From a virus (lineage: Duplodnaviria > Heunggongvirae > Uroviricota > Caudoviricetes): a DNA stretch of 24,212 nt. Both the position numbers and the translations under genes were made by a program. Location of the stretch: IMG/VR virus record IMGVR_UViG_2529292882_000019. One strand, 5' to 3'. Positions 2,642 through 16,971 of the stretch are shown piece after piece (the stretch's first letter is position 1; the number at the start of each line of letters is the position of its first letter). Under the pieces are notes generated by a model. It ran no database searches, was not told the origin of the DNA, and saw only the letters and a program-made list of their open reading frames with translations.

Positions 2642-3417
2642 GCTGCCACCTTCTGCTCTGCGGCTTTCCGTTTCAGGAATCCAAGAGTTTTCACTGCTTC
2701 GGTCTGCGTCAGTTCTGATGATGCGCGAATGTCGCGGCGAAGTATCTGGGAACAGAGCGGCAATAAGTCGTCATCCCATGTTTTATCCAGGGCGATCAGC
2801 AGAGCGTTAATCTCCTGCATGGTTTCATCGTTAACCGGAGTGATGTCGCGTTCCGGCTGACTTTCTGATGCGGTATTTTCGACAATGCGCTCGGCTTCAT
2901 CCTTGTCATAGATACCAGCAAATCCGAAGGCCAGACGGGCACACTGAATCATGGCTTTATGCCGTAACATCCGTTTGGGGTGCGACTGCCACGGCCCCGT
3001 AACTTCTTTGCCTTCGCGGGTTTTGAATGGTTCGCGGCGGCACTCATCCATCCACTCGGTAACGCAGATCGGATGATTGCGGTCCTTGCGGTAAATCCGG
3101 CATGTACAGGATTCATTGTCCTGCTCAAAGTCCATACCATCAAACTGCTGGTTTTCATTGATGATGCGGGACCAGCCATCAACGCCCACCACCGGAACGA
3201 TACCATTCTGCTTATCAGGGAAGGCGTAAATCTCTTTCGTCCACGGATTAAGACCGTACTGGTTGGCGACGATCAGCAGCGCGATGAATTGCGCATCGCT
3301 GGCATTGCCTTTAAATGCTGTCTGGCGAAGAGTGGCGATCAGTTCCTGCGGGTCGACAGTATCCATGCCGACACGTTCAGCCAGCTTCCCGGCCAGCGTT
3401 GCGAGTGCTGTACTCAT
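2638..3417 (-). CDS. bet: Lambda Bet (Red-beta) single-strand annealing protein
   Basis: Protein [19 protein letters not shown]...AAEQKVAA matches lambda Bet along its full length by recall. Sits between gam and exo as in lambda. Confidence 0.95.
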
Positions 3418-3722: not shown

Positions 3723-5730
3723 CTGTTACCCCAAAATTTTCAAGTTTGTTTGCGATCATCATTGCAATACCCGGAATTAATGGCGCTGAGGCTATACCTG
3801 CAGGATTCGCACATAAACCGTAAACCGCCGCAATCACCACTTGTCTTTTCCAGTCGAGTTTTTCTAATGATGAAGCTGCTGCTTCGCCAGTTTCATCACT
3901 GCAATCGCGATGCGGATCGCTGCCAGCATTCTCCTTGTGTGGATGTTCAGCGCCTTCCATTTTCTCCGGCTCATTTTCCCGAACTTCAACCTGATTCTCG
4001 TCATCGAATGTTTCCTGATATATTGCGTCGCCCATCACCGCACCACAGTCAGGGCAGTTATCCCCGCCAGACTGACCGCAGGCATTGCAAACTTTTTCTA
4101 CTTCCTGTTGCGCCACTGGTTCAGGCTGTTTCGTTTCTGGCTCGTTTTGTAACGCATTTGGGCTGTTTTGTTCCGCTTTCTGGTCGTTCTGTTCCGATTC
4201 TTGTTGGTTCTGGTTCACTGAATCGCGGGTTTCAATCCCCTTCACCCATTTCGGATCATTCGGGTCGCTAATCCCCTCAACAAATTCACCACGTGATGCA
4301 GCAAGCAACTTATCGGCATCGACAGGATTTTTTGATGGAATGTTTTTCCGGGCTTCATGGAGTTCTGCCCGCAGTTCTTGATATTTCGCATCAACAGAAT
4401 TTACCTGTGACTGAGCATCCAGCGGCTGCGTGTCCTGATGATGTTCAGTTGCGTCCGGTTCCATTGTTTCAGCCTCTCCCTGTTCATCTGCCGTTGTTCC
4501 AGATGGTTGCGGTTTTTCTTCATCATCCTGTTTTCCTTCTTCTGTTACACGCTGCGGCATCGGGGCAGAGGAACGACCGCAGGCAATATCCACGATTTCC
4601 GGATCAGGGTTGGCATGATCAGTTTCAGTCAGTACTTTGTTCAGATATTCAGTGACGTGCGCGGGGGTGACCTCGATCCCAATTGGTGCTTCTTTCACGG
4701 ACGCAACCACGATGGCGCGGGAATAATCCAGCCCGCCAGGCATGGTGATGAATTTGTCGCGGAAAACAGAAAAGGGCGGTTTATTTTCAGCGATAATTTC
4801 CTCAATGCGTTTAGCGTGTGCCGGATGAAGGTTATAGATGTCCACGTCCATTGAACGGGCAAGTACGCCAGTGGCTACATCGCGTGCCAGTGACGTCAGA
4901 TCGTGGACGAAACCTTCGCCGCGATCGGTGAGGTTCCCGCCGCCAGCATTAGCACCGGAAGCCGTGCGAGTGATGCGTGAAACACGATTCCCTTTTCGCC
5001 ATTCTTTTGTCAGAAGACCGCGATCAATGTGTTCGGTATCCAGCCAGGCTGAAATGAAATTCTTAAATTCATAGGGCTGATGTTTTTTCGTGATAGAGAA
5101 AACTGCCTTAATTGCATCAGTCAGGCGGAGCAGGGCGGCATTATCCAGAGTTGTCGGTTCTGCCATGCCGCGTATGGCCAACAGCAGATTCTGGACATAG
5201 CTGTTTTCCTGATCCATCTCAAGAGCAGTAATGTGTTCGCGTTGTTCACGGGTGGCATGATGCAGGTATTTCCGATCCCCGGCCGCATACGTAAAAATGT
5301 GCAGAAGACGCTGAGTGAACCGCAAAGTGGCTACAGAGACTTCACAATCCTGGCAATCCCCGTGGGCGTCTGCCTGCGCGTTTTCTTCCTGGCCTCCCGT
5401 CAGTTTTTCAGTTTCCTGAGCATTGTCCTGATAGTGAACGTCGTCTGGCGCTGCTCCCGGTTTTAGTTCCCAGGTCATGGAGTCTTTGCTGAGTTGATAG
5501 CGTTCACTCCAGGTAAAATCGATCTCACCTTCAGGGGGAAGGTCATTAACGACAGGAAAATTTGTGGCAACAGCTTTAAAATAGTTGCTCAGTTTTTTAC
5601 CTGACTTAACGATCAGGTAGTCCAGAGTGGCACAGGTCGATTCAAAATCGTCACTTGCCCACAGGACGACGTCAGGTTCACCGGATGATTTTTTCGCTTT
5701 CCGTAACAGGAAGAGTGGTTTTGTGCTCAT
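3697..5730 (-). CDS. Large early-operon protein of unknown function, 677 aa: globular N-terminal half, long acidic Q/E/D-rich low-complexity linker, CxxC...CxxC zinc ribbon, hydrophobic C-terminal tail
   Basis: Long uninterrupted minus-strand ORF with an upstream GAGG. Its 3' end overlaps the gam start by 26 nt. Occupies the kil/cIII position upstream of gam. No family recognised from sequence. Confidence 0.7.
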
Positions 5731-8812: not shown

Positions 8813-9226
8813 ATGAAAATCAAACCGTACATAAATGCCGGAAATCTTACTCCCGGCGAACTACGAGACTGGATCCTGAAACTTGCAAAAAATGCAGAAA
8901 TTGCGGGTTGGGGTACAGAAACTTCGGTTCGGAAGCTTCAGAGCGCAGAACTTAGCCTGCGCTCAGTTATGGACGATTTATCCCCAAGAATTAATTTTCT
9001 GGGGTCAGAGCAAATAATTCGTTCGGAAGATCACTCCAGCGAAGTTGCGGAAGTTCTGAATACTCTGAGGATAACTTTTGCTGCCGTTCGCGATATTCAA
9101 CGAACCATTCTCTCATTGATTTCTCAGCTTCAAGAAATTGATAGTCGCATTCCTGACGGGGGTCATAGAGAGCGTCTTCCAGAATGTGAAGAGCAAGGAC
9201 AGGGGAAACAGATAAGGGATCAGTAA
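8813..9226 (+). CDS. Hypothetical protein, 137 aa (conflicts with the minus-strand ORF 8991..9446)
   Basis: Co-directional with ydaS/ydaT but weak RBS. Overlaps the opposite-strand ORF by 236 nt; only one of the two is likely real. Confidence 0.35.
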   Translation: MKIKPYINAGNLTPGELRDWILKLAKNAEIAGWGTETSVRKLQSAELSLRSVMDDLSPRINFLGSEQIIRSEDHSSEVAEVLNTLRITFAAVRDIQRTILSLISQLQEIDSRIPDGGHRERLPECEEQGQGKQIRDQ

Positions 9227-9446
9227 TACGTTTTTCACTTGCCTGGTATAGCAATCTCGCCAGCGAATCATAGCTACTGGGGCTCAGGAGAGAATCCCGT
9301 GAGTGATTTGTAAGAATCAGGTGAAAGCGGGTGAGAACTATAGCCCTGCATGTTACCAGGTTAACCATGTCGTGGTCGTGCTGGTTAATTTTGTACACAG
9401 TGCGCATGTGATTTTTAATTTTTTGGCAAACAGCCATTAAAGACAT
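8991..9446 (-). CDS. Hypothetical protein, 151 aa (conflicts with the plus-strand ORF 8813..9226)
   Basis: Near-consensus RBS AAGGAGG 7 nt before the ATG at 9446. Divergent from the replication gene. Confidence 0.4.
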   Translation of the reverse strand: MSLMAVCQKIKNHMRTVYKINQHDHDMVNLVTCRAIVLTRFHLILTNHSRDSLLSPSSYDSLARLLYQASEKRITDPLSVSPVLALHILEDALYDPRQECDYQFLEAEKSMREWFVEYRERQQKLSSEYSELPQLRWSDLPNELFALTPEN

Positions 9447-9525
9447 GTCGAACCTCCTTTGGTTCTGTTGATTGGGGAATCACAGATTATATCCGGAGGA
9501 AGGTTCGACACCAGATGAGGCAATT

Positions 9526-10650
9526 ATGGTTAAGGCTAAAAACATGCCAAATCCCATGCCAAAAACTAAGGCAAACAATGAGCCTTATCGCAAGGTAAAA
9601 ATAACGATATGGGATGATCCCAAATTTAGGGCGTTATCTCCTCTGCCTCCAAGTGGACAGAGTTTGTTTATTTATCTGCTGACCAGTCCATTTACCGGGA
9701 TTATTCCTGGGTTGTTTAAAGCCGGGCGGGCAGCAATGGCTGAAGAGTTGGGGTGGGATATCGAAGCCTTTGACTTAGCCTTAGGCGAAGCCATGAATCT
9801 TGGCATGGTGAAAGCAGATATCAAAGCCAGAGTTTTTTGGCTCCCGAATGCTGCGAAACACAATCCGCCAAACTCGATAAATGTCATTAAATCCTGGGCA
9901 AAGGCATTCGCTTTAATTCCTGATTGCCCTCTCAAATGGGAGGCCAGGGAATCGCTGAGAGCCGCGTCCTACGGGGTTTCTGAGGCTTTGGGGATGGCAT
10001 TCGATAAGGCAATCCCTTTGCCTGAGGATAAGCCTAAGGATAAGGCTAACGCTTTGTCATGCGGTATCCAGATAACAGATAACAGATATATAAACCCCAC
10101 ACATAACGCGCGCGTGCGCGAGAGTGCTCCGACCAGTGAGGCAAATGGCGTGCCGTTGCAGACAGCGGAACCTGATTACCTGGAAGGCCTGAGCGAACCC
10201 ATCGGGAAATTTCCTATGACCGATGGCTGGCATCCGTCGCCGGATTTTCGACGACGGGCTGCGCTGTGGGGCGTGGCTCTTCCTGAGCCGGAATTTACAC
10301 CAACTGAACTTGCCGCCTTCCGGGACTACTGGGCAGCGGAGGGCAAAGTGTTCACGCAGGTTCAGTGGGAGCAGAAATTCGCCCGTCACGTAAATCACGT
10401 CAGGGCGCAGGTTAAACCAGTCAGCAAGGGGGTAAACCATGCAGCAACACCAGGTGGCACCGCATCACGGGCAGTTCAGGAAATTCGGGCAGCACGTGAG
10501 CAGTGGGAACGTGAAAACGGATTTATCAGCGACGGAAACGGCGTGGAAGCTGTGGGAACTCATGGGGGAGGTTTATTCGAACCGCTGGACCCAGAAGAAC
10601 GGGGCCGCACCTTCGAAGCTCTGGATTGCACAGATTGGCGCGATGACTGA
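9526..10650 (+). CDS. Replication initiator / replisome organiser (O-like, DnaT-like C-terminal region), about 374 aa from the RBS-supported ATG
   Basis: Large plus-strand ORF directly upstream of a lambda P-like gene. Internal iteron-like repeats at 10020-10110. GAGG lies 5 nt before the ATG at 9526; the track start at 9472 is TTG. Confidence 0.65.
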   Translation: MVKAKNMPNPMPKTKANNEPYRKVKITIWDDPKFRALSPLPPSGQSLFIYLLTSPFTGIIPGLFKAGRAAMAEELGWDIEAFDLALGEAMNLGMVKADIKARVFWLPNAAKHNPPNSINVIKSWAKAFALIPDCPLKWEARESLRAASYGVSEALGMAFDKAIPLPEDKPKDKANALSCGIQITDNRYINPTHNARVRESAPTSEANGVPLQTAEPDYLEGLSEPIGKFPMTDGWHPSPDFRRRAALWGVALPEPEFTPTELAAFRDYWAAEGKVFTQVQWEQKFARHVNHVRAQVKPVSKGVNHAATPGGTASRAVQEIRAAREQWERENGFISDGNGVEAVGTHGGGLFEPLDPEERGRTFEALDCTDWRDD

Positions 10651-11104
10651 GCAGCAAATCCGGCTGGTCTGCCGCCAGTGCATGGACCGCTGCCGGGCGG
10701 GTGAAACATGGCCTCCGGACCTGGCTGAGTTTGTGGCGCTGATTTCGGAGAGTGGGGCAAATCCATTTGGTCTGACGGTGGATGCTGTGATGGAGGAGTA
10801 CCGCCGCTGGCGCAATGAGTCCTGGCGATACGACGGAAGTGATAAGTACCCGTGGTCTCAGCCTGTGCTGTATCACATTTGCCTCGAGATGCGTTCAAAG
10901 GGGATTGAGCGCCAGATGACCGAAGGGGAATTAAAACGGCTTGCAGAACGGCAGCTGACGAAATGGGCAAAGCATGTTAGTAACGGCCTGGGCGTTCCGC
11001 CAGTCCGGCGACAACTGGCGGCACCCAAACGCCCGTCGGGGCCAACGCCAATTGAGTTACTGAAACAGGAATATGAACGCCGGAAAGCGGCTGGGTTTGT
11101 TTGA
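10439..11104 (+). CDS. Lambda P-like replicative helicase loader, 221 aa
   Basis: C-terminal half aligns by eye with lambda P (PPDLAEFVALI vs PSPGQFVAWC; YPWSQPVLYHIC vs YPWKSNAHYWLV; MTEGELKRLAERQL vs LTDAELRRKAADEL). GGGGG RBS before the ATG at 10439. Overlaps the initiator ORF out of frame. Confidence 0.7.
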   Translation: MQQHQVAPHHGQFRKFGQHVSSGNVKTDLSATETAWKLWELMGEVYSNRWTQKNGAAPSKLWIAQIGAMTEQQIRLVCRQCMDRCRAGETWPPDLAEFVALISESGANPFGLTVDAVMEEYRRWRNESWRYDGSDKYPWSQPVLYHICLEMRSKGIERQMTEGELKRLAERQLTKWAKHVSNGLGVPPVRRQLAAPKRPSGPTPIELLKQEYERRKAAGFV

Positions 11105-13091: not shown

Positions 13092-14019
13092 ATAATCACC
13101 CCTTTGTTTCCGCTATGCAGTTCTAACAATATATCATTAGAAAGGTTTTTTATCGTGTCATGAAGTGCTGTTAGATCAGGTATGCCTGTTAATGGGTCGA
13201 TTTTTAGATCATTATCATCTAACTCTGCGGAAATTCCTTTTTTTAGTATGGTATCATAATTGAAAACGACAGTCCGACTGCCGAGTTGTAAGCTTACTTT
13301 TATTGCATCACATTTATCTTCAATAATCTCAATGATGTTTCCTATATTCTTGTTTCTTAAATCCCTGAAACTTCCGAACATGCCATCGTTTGCTTTTATT
13401 ATTAAGTCTGTCTTGATGTTTGTTTTGTTTTGACCAAAGGAATCAGCAATGTCTTTTGGTGCTTTATATCCTTGAGCCTTAATTTGTTTTAATTCGGAAT
13501 TGAGAATATATTGAGGGATTTTCTTATGATGTAATGGATTGATTCTTGCTTCGAGTTGAAATTTGTTTTTTAGATATTCAGTGATAGAATCAGAAAGGAC
13601 ACCTCGAGCAGAAATATTATCGCAAGAGTGGAATGCAATAATTCCTTCTTTAAGGGCGTCTGGTAGGTATATTAAAATATAACGTTCTTTGAGTGTTACA
13701 TCATAAGCAGTTGTCCTATAGTGGATTTTTTTGAGTTTTACATCTTTTATTTCACTGCTTTCTCCATATTTCCCAACTTTTATATAACCATATATAATTT
13801 TTTTGAGTTATCAAAGTGAAGTTTAGCGTGTTGTTCCAGAGATATTTTAGTTTTGGATACGCCAAACTCGATGGGGGTGTTTTTATATAGAGTAAAATAA
13901 TCAACAAAAAGTTCATATGCCGTTTTTTTATTACTTAAACCCAATTCATTAAGTTTTTTGCTGGCTCGACTGCCTTTATGGGTCAATACGCGGAATGAAT
14001 AGAAATTAACGCTGTGCAT
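13088..14019 (-). CDS. Soluble protein of about 310 aa encoded in two frames: 79-aa ORF (14019..13780) plus a 240-codon open frame (13807..13088) joined by a -1 shift at an A7 tract (13798..13804); possible pseudogene, homopolymer error or slippage
   Basis: AAGGA RBS 7 nt before the ATG at 14019. The downstream frame has no stop for 240 codons and no ATG/GTG/TTG before codon 143, which is unlikely by chance in AT-rich DNA. Heptamer A_AAA_AAA sits in the 25-nt window where both frames are open. Contains an Rx4H motif (RINPLH). Confidence 0.6.
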
Positions 14020-14043
14020 GAAAAGTCCTTTTGAACATATAGG

Positions 14044-14070
14044 AATATACTAGAACATAAATAGATGCAA
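14044..14070 (-). promoter_or_regulatory. Candidate sigma70 promoter for the two-gene cassette
   Basis: On the minus strand: TTGCAT, 15-nt spacer, TATATT, ending about 25 nt upstream of the cassette ATG. Spacing is suboptimal. Confidence 0.2.
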
Positions 14071-14421
14071 TGCATAAAGGAAAAGCTACCGCAGGGCGAA
14101 CTCACCCACCGATAGCTCTTAACTGGTTGTTTGTAAAAGATAATACATAAATTGGGGCTGTGTAAAGAGGTAAGCATCGTCAGGGCAAGGGAGATGTGTT
14201 AGGCGATATTGGTAAAATTTTCGTTGAGGATAAAAACGGTTTGCGGGAAAAGGAGAGTTAAGTAGAATTGCTGCGGGTGCTTGAGGCTATCTGCCTCGGG
14301 CATGAACACCAACGGCAGATAGATAAAAGCCCCACCCGACTATAAATCGAAGTGAGGCCCCTATATGCTCGTCACATATAGATTGCCTCTTACTGACCGA
14401 AAGGTCAAGGAGAAGCAGGCT

Positions 14422-14577
14422 ATGAAGCAGCAAAAGGCGATGTTAATCGCCCTGATCGTCATCTGTTTAACCGTCATAGTGACGGCACTGGTAACGAGGA
14501 AAGACCTCTGCGAGGTACGAATCCGAACCGGCCAGACGGAGGTCGCTGTCTTCACAGCTTACGAACCTGAGGAGTAA
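14422..14577 (+). CDS. hokD: Hok/Gef-family type I toxin, 51 aa (HokD/RelF-like)
   Basis: MKQQKAMLIALIVICLTVIVTALVTRKDLCEVRIRTGQTEVAVFTAYEPEE: single TM helix plus conserved C-terminal periplasmic region of Hok toxins. Followed by a strong terminator. Confidence 0.8.
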   Translation: MKQQKAMLIALIVICLTVIVTALVTRKDLCEVRIRTGQTEVAVFTAYEPEE

Positions 14578-14646
14578 GAGACCTGGCGGGGGAGAAATCT
14601 CCCGCCACCTCTGATGTGTCAGGCATCCTCAATGCACCCACACTTA

Positions 14647-14675
14647 ACCCGCTTCGGCGGGTTTTTGTTTTTATT
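14647..14675 (+). terminator. Rho-independent terminator downstream of hok
   Basis: Stem ACCCGC/GCGGGT with TTCG loop, followed by TTTTTGTTTTTATTTT. Confidence 0.8.
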
Positions 14676-14797
14676 TTCAACGCGTTTGAAGTTTTGGATA
14701 GTGCCGGAATAGAATCAAAAATACTTAAGTAGCGTGCAGGGAGAAGAGGGATGGACCCCGAACAGGGGAGTGCTATTTATCTGGAAGGATTCTGTTG

Positions 14798-14971
14798 ATG
14801 AAAATCGAAGAATTACGTGAAATTTTTAGTGAAGATGGCCTCTATGCTGTGCGCGTTGAGAATGGAGAAGTTATCTACACAACGTTAATTCCTGATGATC
14901 ATGTGATTTTATCTATCGAGGCATTCATTGAATACCTGGAAAGGCTCGGTTTCAAGGTGGTTCGGGAATGA
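14798..14971 (+). CDS. Small hypothetical protein, 57 aa (hand-translated; below ORF-track cutoff)
   Basis: MKIEELREIFSEDGLYAVRVENGEVIYTTLIPDDHVILSIEAFIEYLERLGFKVVRE. GGAAGGA about 10 nt upstream of the ATG. Confidence 0.4.
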   Translation: MKIEELREIFSEDGLYAVRVENGEVIYTTLIPDDHVILSIEAFIEYLERLGFKVVRE

Positions 14972-15030
14972 GTTATAATTCGTAAGCCAGCCTGAACAAC
15001 TGGCAACCTACAGCGCCATTGGAGATAGCA

Positions 15031-16817: not shown

Positions 16818-16893
<76 letters not shown>

Positions 16894-16896
16894 TAT

Positions 16897-16971
<75 letters not shown>

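Follow-up and report, generated by a model that had tools for sequence, protein, structure and literature searches.

A candidate replication origin inside the initiator gene of a Rac-like Escherichia coli prophage

The stretch of DNA analysed here, the 24,212-nt IMG/VR virus record IMGVR_UViG_2529292882_000019 (hereafter the window), is a Rac-like lambdoid prophage of Escherichia coli. In the middle of its replication initiator gene lie an array of short repeats, an A/T-rich tract and a GC-rich block, and from their sequence we consider it probable (roughly 0.75) that these elements form the replication origin of the prophage, with the layout of the lambda origin (ori-lambda) and an initiator that is not homologous to lambda O. 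A preliminary description of the same DNA had proposed a plausible origin at 10020-10110, made up of two GGATAAG and two to three AGATAAC repeats, TATATAAA and a GC-rich palindrome, all within a replication initiator gene. These elements were indeed found. GGATAAG is present at 10026-10032 and 10038-10044, 12 nt apart and inside the open reading frame (ORF) 9526-10650, with a third GATAAG at 10003; AGATAAC is present in two exact copies (10070-10076 and 10077-10083) and a degenerate third, AGATATA (10084-10090); TATATAAA lies at 10087-10094; and the palindrome, CGCGCGCGTGCGCG, self-complementary at 12 of its 14 positions, occupies 10107-10120 and thus ends 10 nt beyond the proposed extent. The coordinates of all features are collected in Table 1.

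The array itself proved larger than the two GGATAAG copies. Alignment of the window with relatives from Salmonella, Citrobacter, Pluralibacter, Serratia and Dryocola revealed five 12-nt units followed by a tract of 7-nt period, and the 12-nt periodicity is kept across the six enteric genera. The core of the array is the 8-mer TAAGSCWA, present in seven copies in the window (both strands); six of the seven, at 9531, 9567, 9776 (inverted), 10005, 10029 and 10041, lie within 9526-10062 (537 nt, the 5' half of the gene), against 0.02 expected for this motif, which was chosen post hoc. The 100 nt from approximately 10003 rank first in the window for the density of repeated 7-mers and 8-mers, and lysine is encoded by AAG at all four array codons (4/4), compared to 5/19 in the rest of the initiator gene. 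The reading of the repeats as iterons is therefore upheld for the TAAGSCWA array, and abandoned for AGATAAC: since the latter is part of an A/T tract common to all initiator types, its copies are not type-specific iterons. The feature as a whole is also larger than 10020-10110: the array begins at 10003, and further copies of the motif are found well upstream.

The upstream copies are grouped in two clusters. The 5'-proximal one may hold auxiliary or autoregulatory sites. The internal one is a 23-nt inverted repeat, 83% complementary to 10032-10054, with an inverted TAAGGCTA at 9776; it is kept in the Salmonella, Citrobacter and Serratia relatives, at a place where protein constraint is inseparable from DNA constraint. 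In the enteric relatives (loci L010, L011 and L013-L015) repeat clusters occur at the same sites (the 5' end of the gene, ca. +240 in inverted orientation, and ca. +480), and in each of them two or all three clusters are linked by inverted repeats. A second cluster of the type's own repeat, approximately 200-280 bp upstream of the main array and within the N-domain coding sequence, was also seen in several unrelated initiator types (for example at 1164-1230 and 1445-1492 of locus L003, and at 1260-1316 and 1421-1490 of L002); the window type has a third (9531-9592, 9764-9795 and 10003-10062). Such extra clusters could serve DNA looping, a larger nucleoprotein complex or autoregulation.

Directly downstream of the array, positions 10065-10098 make up the least stable 20-30 bp of the initiator gene, and this segment is immediately abutted by a 15-mer (10106-10120) that is more stable than any other in the window. 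The GC block responsible belongs to a near-invariant sequence, AAACCCCACACATAACGCGCGCGTGCGCGAGAG, which also marks the start of a C-terminal module shared among the initiators. No significant hairpin or cruciform was predicted at the GC block (DNA fold of 10060-10135, z=-0.69), and "terminator-like" matches on the minus strand at 10098-10120 were rejected, being the GC block with a poor T tail. A promoter scan gave no promoter-like site near the element, Rfam had no match in the candidate origin region, and a search for DnaA boxes (TTATNCACA) returned one box with one mismatch at 10023-10031, without a cluster, the counts across the window being near chance. In most relatives the A/T tract contains a GATC (Dam) site (AAACAGATCTTAAACCCC, CAGATCTAAAAG; alignments A1 and A4), and in K-12 Rac it contains two. 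The window carries GATATATA at 10084-10094 and no GATC, and any Dam/SeqA control of the tract would therefore be absent here.

By a published definition, a lambdoid origin combines iterons with an AT-rich tract, placed midway along the initiator gene (PMC7466680). Lambda O, run through the same scripts, was used as a positive control. On a relative scale the repeat maximum of O falls at 0.42 and the least stable 25-mer of that gene at 0.51, compared to 0.46 and 0.50 in the window gene. The 25-bp melting free energies are likewise close, -24.8 for the window tract and -25.5 for the AT-rich region of lambda.

The product of the gene is recognisable as an initiator, as had been proposed. Searched as a whole, the protein hits PHROG 1408 ("replication initiation protein", E=3e-92), and its C-terminal part matches the Pfam DnaT domain (PF17948, aa (amino acids) 229-295, E=4e-18); the NCBIfam DnaT match, at 97 bits, is below the 201-bit cut-off of that model and is thus a partial one. 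Two further PHROGs are hit by the N-terminus, namely "DnaD-like helicase loader" at E=4e-13 and "replisome organizer" at E=4e-4. An AlphaFold2 (AF2) model of aa 1-185 has a predicted local distance difference test (pLDDT) score of 85 and a helix-helix-strand-strand core, which suggests a winged-helix-like N-domain; no sequence match to this domain was found in the PDB. As for lambda O, the initiator has no Phage_rep_O match in Pfam, and comparison of the N-domain profile with lambda O by hhalign gave a probability of 0.1% (E=0.56). By these sequence comparisons the initiator is not an O homologue.

Support for an origin comes from the way in which the repeats follow the N-domain from prophage to prophage. 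A 751-nt query (9400-10150) was used in megablast, and mosaic relatives were fetched and aligned. In approximately 230 E. coli genomes the similarity sets in no earlier than 10066-10070, in some it is confined to 9439-9529, and just 37 match most of the query. Among these prophages six initiator types with differing N-domains were distinguished, each with its own repeat placed directly 5' of the common A/T tract and of the block AAACCCCACACATAACGCGCGCGTGCGCGAGAG: GATAAGG in the window type (3 copies), GTCACGA in type b (5 copies), TAACTAC/GTAGTTA in the DUF1376-a type (8 copies), TGTTCAA in DUF1376-c and the ydaU gene of K-12 Rac (5-6 copies), ACCCAAA in the PPompW type (6 copies) and GTAACGC in the TL-2011b type (4 copies). 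Cross-counts of these repeats between types are essentially zero (background 0.2-0.7 per 125 nt), and the window-type motif is missing from the linkers of the other types. The match pattern indicates that the N-domain coding sequence and its cognate repeats (9526-10062) are swapped among prophages as one cassette. This co-variation over six types, together with a lambda-P-like gene next to the initiator, lends support to the earlier suggestion of an origin.

K-12 Rac itself displays a comparable layout in ydaU (locus L009, 2505-2650), with two direct copies and one inverted copy of TGTTCAAACA, all exact, then AATAAAGATACAGATAAAGATCTAAAAACAGAT and then a C7/C7G5 block; its core TGTTCAA has six matches at no more than one mismatch. 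Unlike the window gene, ydaU has a DUF1376 N-domain, another C-terminus and a DnaC-like partner, ydaV. Rac has been reported to carry an active origin (PMC3945230), and the primers described there as "framing oriJ" amplify a 155-bp piece of ydaV (L009 3241-3395) in the Walker A region. We found no repeats and no AT-rich element in this amplicon, and no sequence-level description of an origin in the literature on oriJ, YdaU, DUF1376 or DnaT-type phage initiators.

The position of that probe bears on the alternative which survives best, namely that the repeats are genuine initiator-binding sites serving autoregulation or copy control, and that unwinding and the start of replication take place at another site, such as one farther downstream, within the loader gene or close to it. 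The motif copies at 9531 and 9567, beside the start codon, would suit such a role, plasmid iterons are known to double as operators, and the published probe does lie in ydaV. We nevertheless regard this scenario as unlikely: the densest array sits right beside the segment of the gene that is least stable, an arrangement also seen in lambda, no other region of the window pairs an iteron-like array with an initiator gene, and the ydaV amplicon lacks both expected elements. The other repeat-dense regions of the window, near 4116, 12759, 13708 and 16604, do not adjoin the initiator gene. The three inspected, near 4116, 13708 and 16604, hold two-copy repeats only and no iteron array, and lie at 13708 and 16604 in AT-rich sequence, of the intergenic, low-complexity kind.

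The mosaic pattern could also be read in a different manner, with the A/T tract and the invariant block being a recombination joint at a module boundary, kept by frequent exchange of N- and C-terminal halves and not by origin function. Homology among the ca. 230 genomes does start exactly at the tract; the block has a mean pairwise identity of 0.97, compared to 0.84-0.87 over the following 100 nt; and the mosaic junction of the window gene falls in the A/T tract, as do the annotated hybrid junctions of lambda. An exchange point of this kind leaves three observations unexplained, these being the upstream arrays of type-specific repeats, the melting profile, and the presence of a CAG-phased tract in distant relatives with unrelated C-termini (described below), and as a full account it appears to us very unlikely. 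A recombination joint is at the same time compatible with an origin, since lambda shows both.

To follow the element beyond the enteric bacteria, homologues of the N-domain were collected. The family, for which there is no Pfam model, comprises 124 detected homologues, and 48 genomic loci were retrieved, from phyla as far apart as Gammaproteobacteria, Acidobacteria, Spirochaetes and Planctomycetes. When each 5.5-kb locus was scanned for repeats, the densest 100 nt came directly after the N-domain in 37 cases out of 48. The linkers of these distant relatives contain three to seven copies of a palindromic core, AAGSCTT, followed by ATGCCTAAT and then by (CAGGAR)4-13; the counterpart tracts in the other E. 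coli types are (CAGATA)n. The period of the tract is thus 6 nt in the distant relatives and 7 nt in the enterics, with CAG phasing kept in both, and a 7-nt period cannot stem from a peptide repeat. Depending on the lineage, the AAGSCTT core encodes KPS/KAF or, through a change of frame, EAF/EAL, and the single 10-mer GAAGCCTTCC yields KPS in certain lineages and EAF, in a second frame, elsewhere. Codon choice in the distant family is also biased locally: proline is CCT at 65/109 linker codons versus 96/600 elsewhere in the same genes, alanine is GCT at 73/217 versus 153/1029, and glutamine is CAG at 168/169 tract codons versus 186/278 elsewhere. These codon-usage and reading-frame results point to selection acting on the DNA and not on the peptide. 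In distant loci the gene behind the initiator homologue codes for a DnaB helicase, as would suit an initiator.

Many distant homologues also have a perfect hairpin or palindrome of 6-9 bp with a 3-6-nt loop (often TAAC or TGAC), located approximately 10-40 nt after (CAGGAR)n (L019, L023-L028, L030, L034, L043, L046 and L053; locus coordinates ca. 3000-3080). Its stems vary by lineage, for example AGTAACCC/GGGTTACT, ACAGAGGC/GCCTCTGT and ACACCCCTC/GAGGGGTGT. As the hairpins were picked from the same sequences, a covariation count would be circular, and per-locus shuffles were used instead; in 13 of 34 loci no more than 7 of 300 shuffles reached the observed stem length. The hairpin recalls the palindrome to the right of the AT-rich region of lambda, and the window has no such hairpin.

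The preliminary description had named what would speak against an origin, namely repeats due to a peptide linker alone with no conservation as DNA, together with a lack of origin activity. When conservation was looked at, the repeats were found to be conserved and constrained as DNA, and the origin reading thus withstands the objection. That the repeats are a by-product of a flexible, low-complexity (DK/KP-rich) linker without any function as DNA is accordingly highly improbable, for even though the array encodes the charged, proline-rich DKAIPLPEDKPKDKANALS, AF2 confidence is low over aa 170-185, 12 nt equal four codons and a synonymous-site test was not significant, a linker peptide accounts neither for the 7-nt period of the AGATAAC tract, nor for one DNA core giving different peptides in two frames, the strong CCT, GCT and CAG bias limited to the linker, the inverted copies elsewhere in the gene, or a repeat that changes from one N-domain type to the next at a fixed position, upstream of a peptide which the types have in common.

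Several points do weigh against the reading of the element as an origin. Between 18 and 26 regions of the window are as unstable as 10065-10098; the A/T tract is short (ca. 30 bp, versus ca. 40 bp in lambda); and the repeats of the window type are short and degenerate beside the 19-bp iterons of lambda. The N-domain model gave weak Foldseek matches to the PDB (E>=0.06), all of them to winged helix-turn-helix regulators. The P values of the codon tests are inflated because the sequences are phylogenetically related, and the synonymous-site test in the enteric relatives, with eight usable linker codons, gave 0.33 versus 0.49 pairwise differences (p=0.19), a trend in the direction expected for DNA constraint in an underpowered comparison. 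Finally, the oriJ probe is located 600-750 bp downstream of the equivalent ydaU repeats.

If the element is an origin, its working might be pictured by analogy with lambda O and P. The N-terminal winged-helix-like domain would bind the TAAGSCWA repeats and build a multimeric nucleoprotein complex, with binding densest at the five-unit, 12-bp-period array and helped by auxiliary copies near the start of the gene and halfway along it. Strain from this complex, negative supercoiling and rightward transcription through the gene could together melt the A/T tract, and the GC-rich block would limit the spread of melting. The DnaT-like C-domain (in DnaT a single-stranded DNA-binding domain) and the P-like protein would then bring the host DnaB to the opened DNA.

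A broader and more doubtful proposition is that the window belongs to a large unannotated initiator family sharing a conserved "grammar" of intragenic origin DNA, in which the CAG phasing is itself functional, beyond a generic AT-rich unwinding element. The parts of this grammar would be palindromic AAGSCTT repeats at 12-nt spacing, a strictly CAG-phased tract of the form (CAGGAR)n, (CAGTAAA)n or (CAGATAA)n and, for many of the lineages, a TAAC- or TGAC-looped hairpin whose stems co-vary. Because the complement of CAG, 5'-CTG-3', is the trinucleotide that E. coli DnaG prefers as template, the tract might be a phased array of primase start signals. It might instead be a series of repeats bound by the initiator as single strands, comparable to DnaA-trios.

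Table 1. Positions of the candidate origin elements, the initiator gene and other features in the window (nucleotides unless marked aa).
Feature	Position	Strand	Basis or remark
Replication initiator gene, 374 aa	9526..10650	+	PHROG 1408, Pfam DnaT
Initiator domains: predicted winged-helix-like N-domain; linker carrying the candidate origin; DnaT-like C-domain	aa ~20-165; aa ~159-198; aa 229-295		
Putative type-specific cassette: N-domain coding sequence and cognate repeats	9526..10062	+	megablast match pattern; 6/7 TAAGSCWA copies
5'-proximal repeat cluster: TAAGGCTA at 9531; CATGCCAAA twice at 12-nt spacing, 9543-9566; TAAGGCAA at 9567; inverted GATAAGGC at ~9582-9592	9531..9592	+	
Internal inverted copy of the repeat cluster, AAGCCTTTGACTTAGCCTTAGGCGAAGCC	9764..9795	-	within conserved N-domain helix
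Main iteron array, five 12-nt units: GATAAGGCAATC, CCTTTGCCTGAG, GATAAGCCTAAG, GATAAGGCTAAC, GCTTTGTCATGC	10003..10062	+	candidate initiator-binding site
A/T-rich tract with CAG every 7 nt: GGTATCC AGATAAC AGATAAC AGATATA TAAACCCC	10063..10098	+	candidate DNA unwinding element; mosaic junction at 5' edge
Near-invariant block AAACCCCACACATAACGCGCGCGTGCGCGAGAG: alternating purine-pyrimidine runs and GC block 10107-10120	10093..10125	+	candidate boundary or clamp for unwinding
Lambda-P-like helicase loader gene	10643..11104	+	Pfam Phage_lambda_P, E=7e-16; overlaps initiator stop codon by 8 nt
RalA, antitoxin small RNA of the Rac RalR system; sok antisense RNA (hok/sok); two phage-borne tRNA genes, Thr-TGT and Gly-TCC	1557-1735; 14275-14424; 16818-16971		Rfam, ARAGORN

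The surroundings of the gene are those of a Rac-like prophage, with RalA, a recE-like exonuclease, kil, a DicA-like repressor and ydaS-like and ydaT-like genes in the window; relatives carry the P-like gene under the name "replication protein P". With PP818812.1, a record named Actinobacillus phage vB_Apl-pPE4, the window shares 99% identity. All other relatives of the window, as well as its gene content (Rac-type RalA, ydaS/T, recE-like), belong to E. coli or other Enterobacteriaceae, for which reason the attribution of PP818812.1 to an Actinobacillus host looks doubtful. In the interval between ydaT and the initiator gene, two ORFs overlap on opposite strands (8813-9226, plus; 8991-9446, minus). 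Both are listed as "hypothetical protein" in the near-identical phage record, and it is likely that one of them is real at most. The intergenic stretch 9446-9510 contains a perfect 10-bp inverted repeat, TGTCGAACCT/AGGTTCGACA. Farther along, the sok RNA is situated in an AT-rich stretch of approximately 1.6 kb (13400-15000) having no ORF of 90 aa or more. In E. coli HNSQ2209 (NZ_CP137737.1) the match to 9400-10150 is in two pieces which flank an IS1 transposase, an IS1 insertion in or next to this initiator gene or candidate origin that would inactivate the replicon of that prophage.

The analysis offers a testable, sequence-level candidate origin for Rac-like prophages, including the long-known and poorly mapped oriJ of K-12 Rac. 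The same type of candidate is offered for several E. coli phages that are Stx-associated or related to these (PPompW/Stx2a hybrids, TL-2011b), where the dosage of the toxin gene is driven by phage replication. The rule that a DNA-binding domain and its sites are swapped as one cassette at the A/T tract would hold not for lambda O alone but also for no fewer than six unrelated N-domain types, and origins could be annotated by a simple recipe throughout a widespread initiator family for which Pfam has no model. A segment of approximately 130 bp, synonymously recoded or supplied as ectopic copies, could be used to disable or titrate prophage replication.

Among known origins, those of iteron plasmids (pSC101, R6K, P1 and F) resemble the proposed one in having direct repeats for a winged-helix initiator (here a predicted winged-helix-like one) beside an AT-rich unwinding element, and in that the repeats may double as regulatory sites. 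The iterons of plasmids, however, lie between genes, measure 17-22 bp and usually come with DnaA boxes, whereas those of the window are intragenic, with no DnaA-box cluster. In the Bacillus phage SPP1, oriL lies inside gene 38, which encodes the G38P replisome organizer, and the binding repeats of the protein are within its own coding sequence. By its PHROG matches, the N-domain of the window initiator may be related to the DnaD-like or replisome-organizer N-domains of SPP1 and DnaD-like phage initiators, and its candidate binding repeats likewise lie in its own gene; the similarity is remote, the host phylum is another one, and the partners are G39P and G40P in SPP1, versus a P-like loader and the host DnaB here.

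The closest parallel is with ori-lambda in gene O and the O/P proteins, a lambdoid class that includes the Stx phages 933W and P27. In both systems the candidate or known origin sits in the middle of the initiator gene, at the linker between the DNA-binding and the loader-interacting domains; the order is repeats, an easily melted A/T tract and a GC-richer element; the repeats and the N-terminal half make up one specificity unit, with the C-terminal half matched to the P-type loader of the next gene; and the mosaic junction is in the A/T tract. Relative positions and melting energies of the two elements are near-identical. On the other hand, the C-domain of the window initiator is DnaT-like and its N-domain has no detectable homology to O. 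Its array has a 12-bp period and an 8-bp core, compared to four dyad-symmetric 19-bp iterons at ca. 21-24 bp in lambda, and it is joined by extra repeat clusters, one 5'-terminal and one mid-gene; the A/T tract has CAG phasing and is not as long as that of lambda, and an alternating-CG block takes the place of the 28-bp palindrome of lambda. The lambda parallel drawn at the outset is thus retained for architecture, relative position and melting profile and given up for the initiator; as the latter is not an O homologue, the element would be like ori-lambda in its working and outside the O family.

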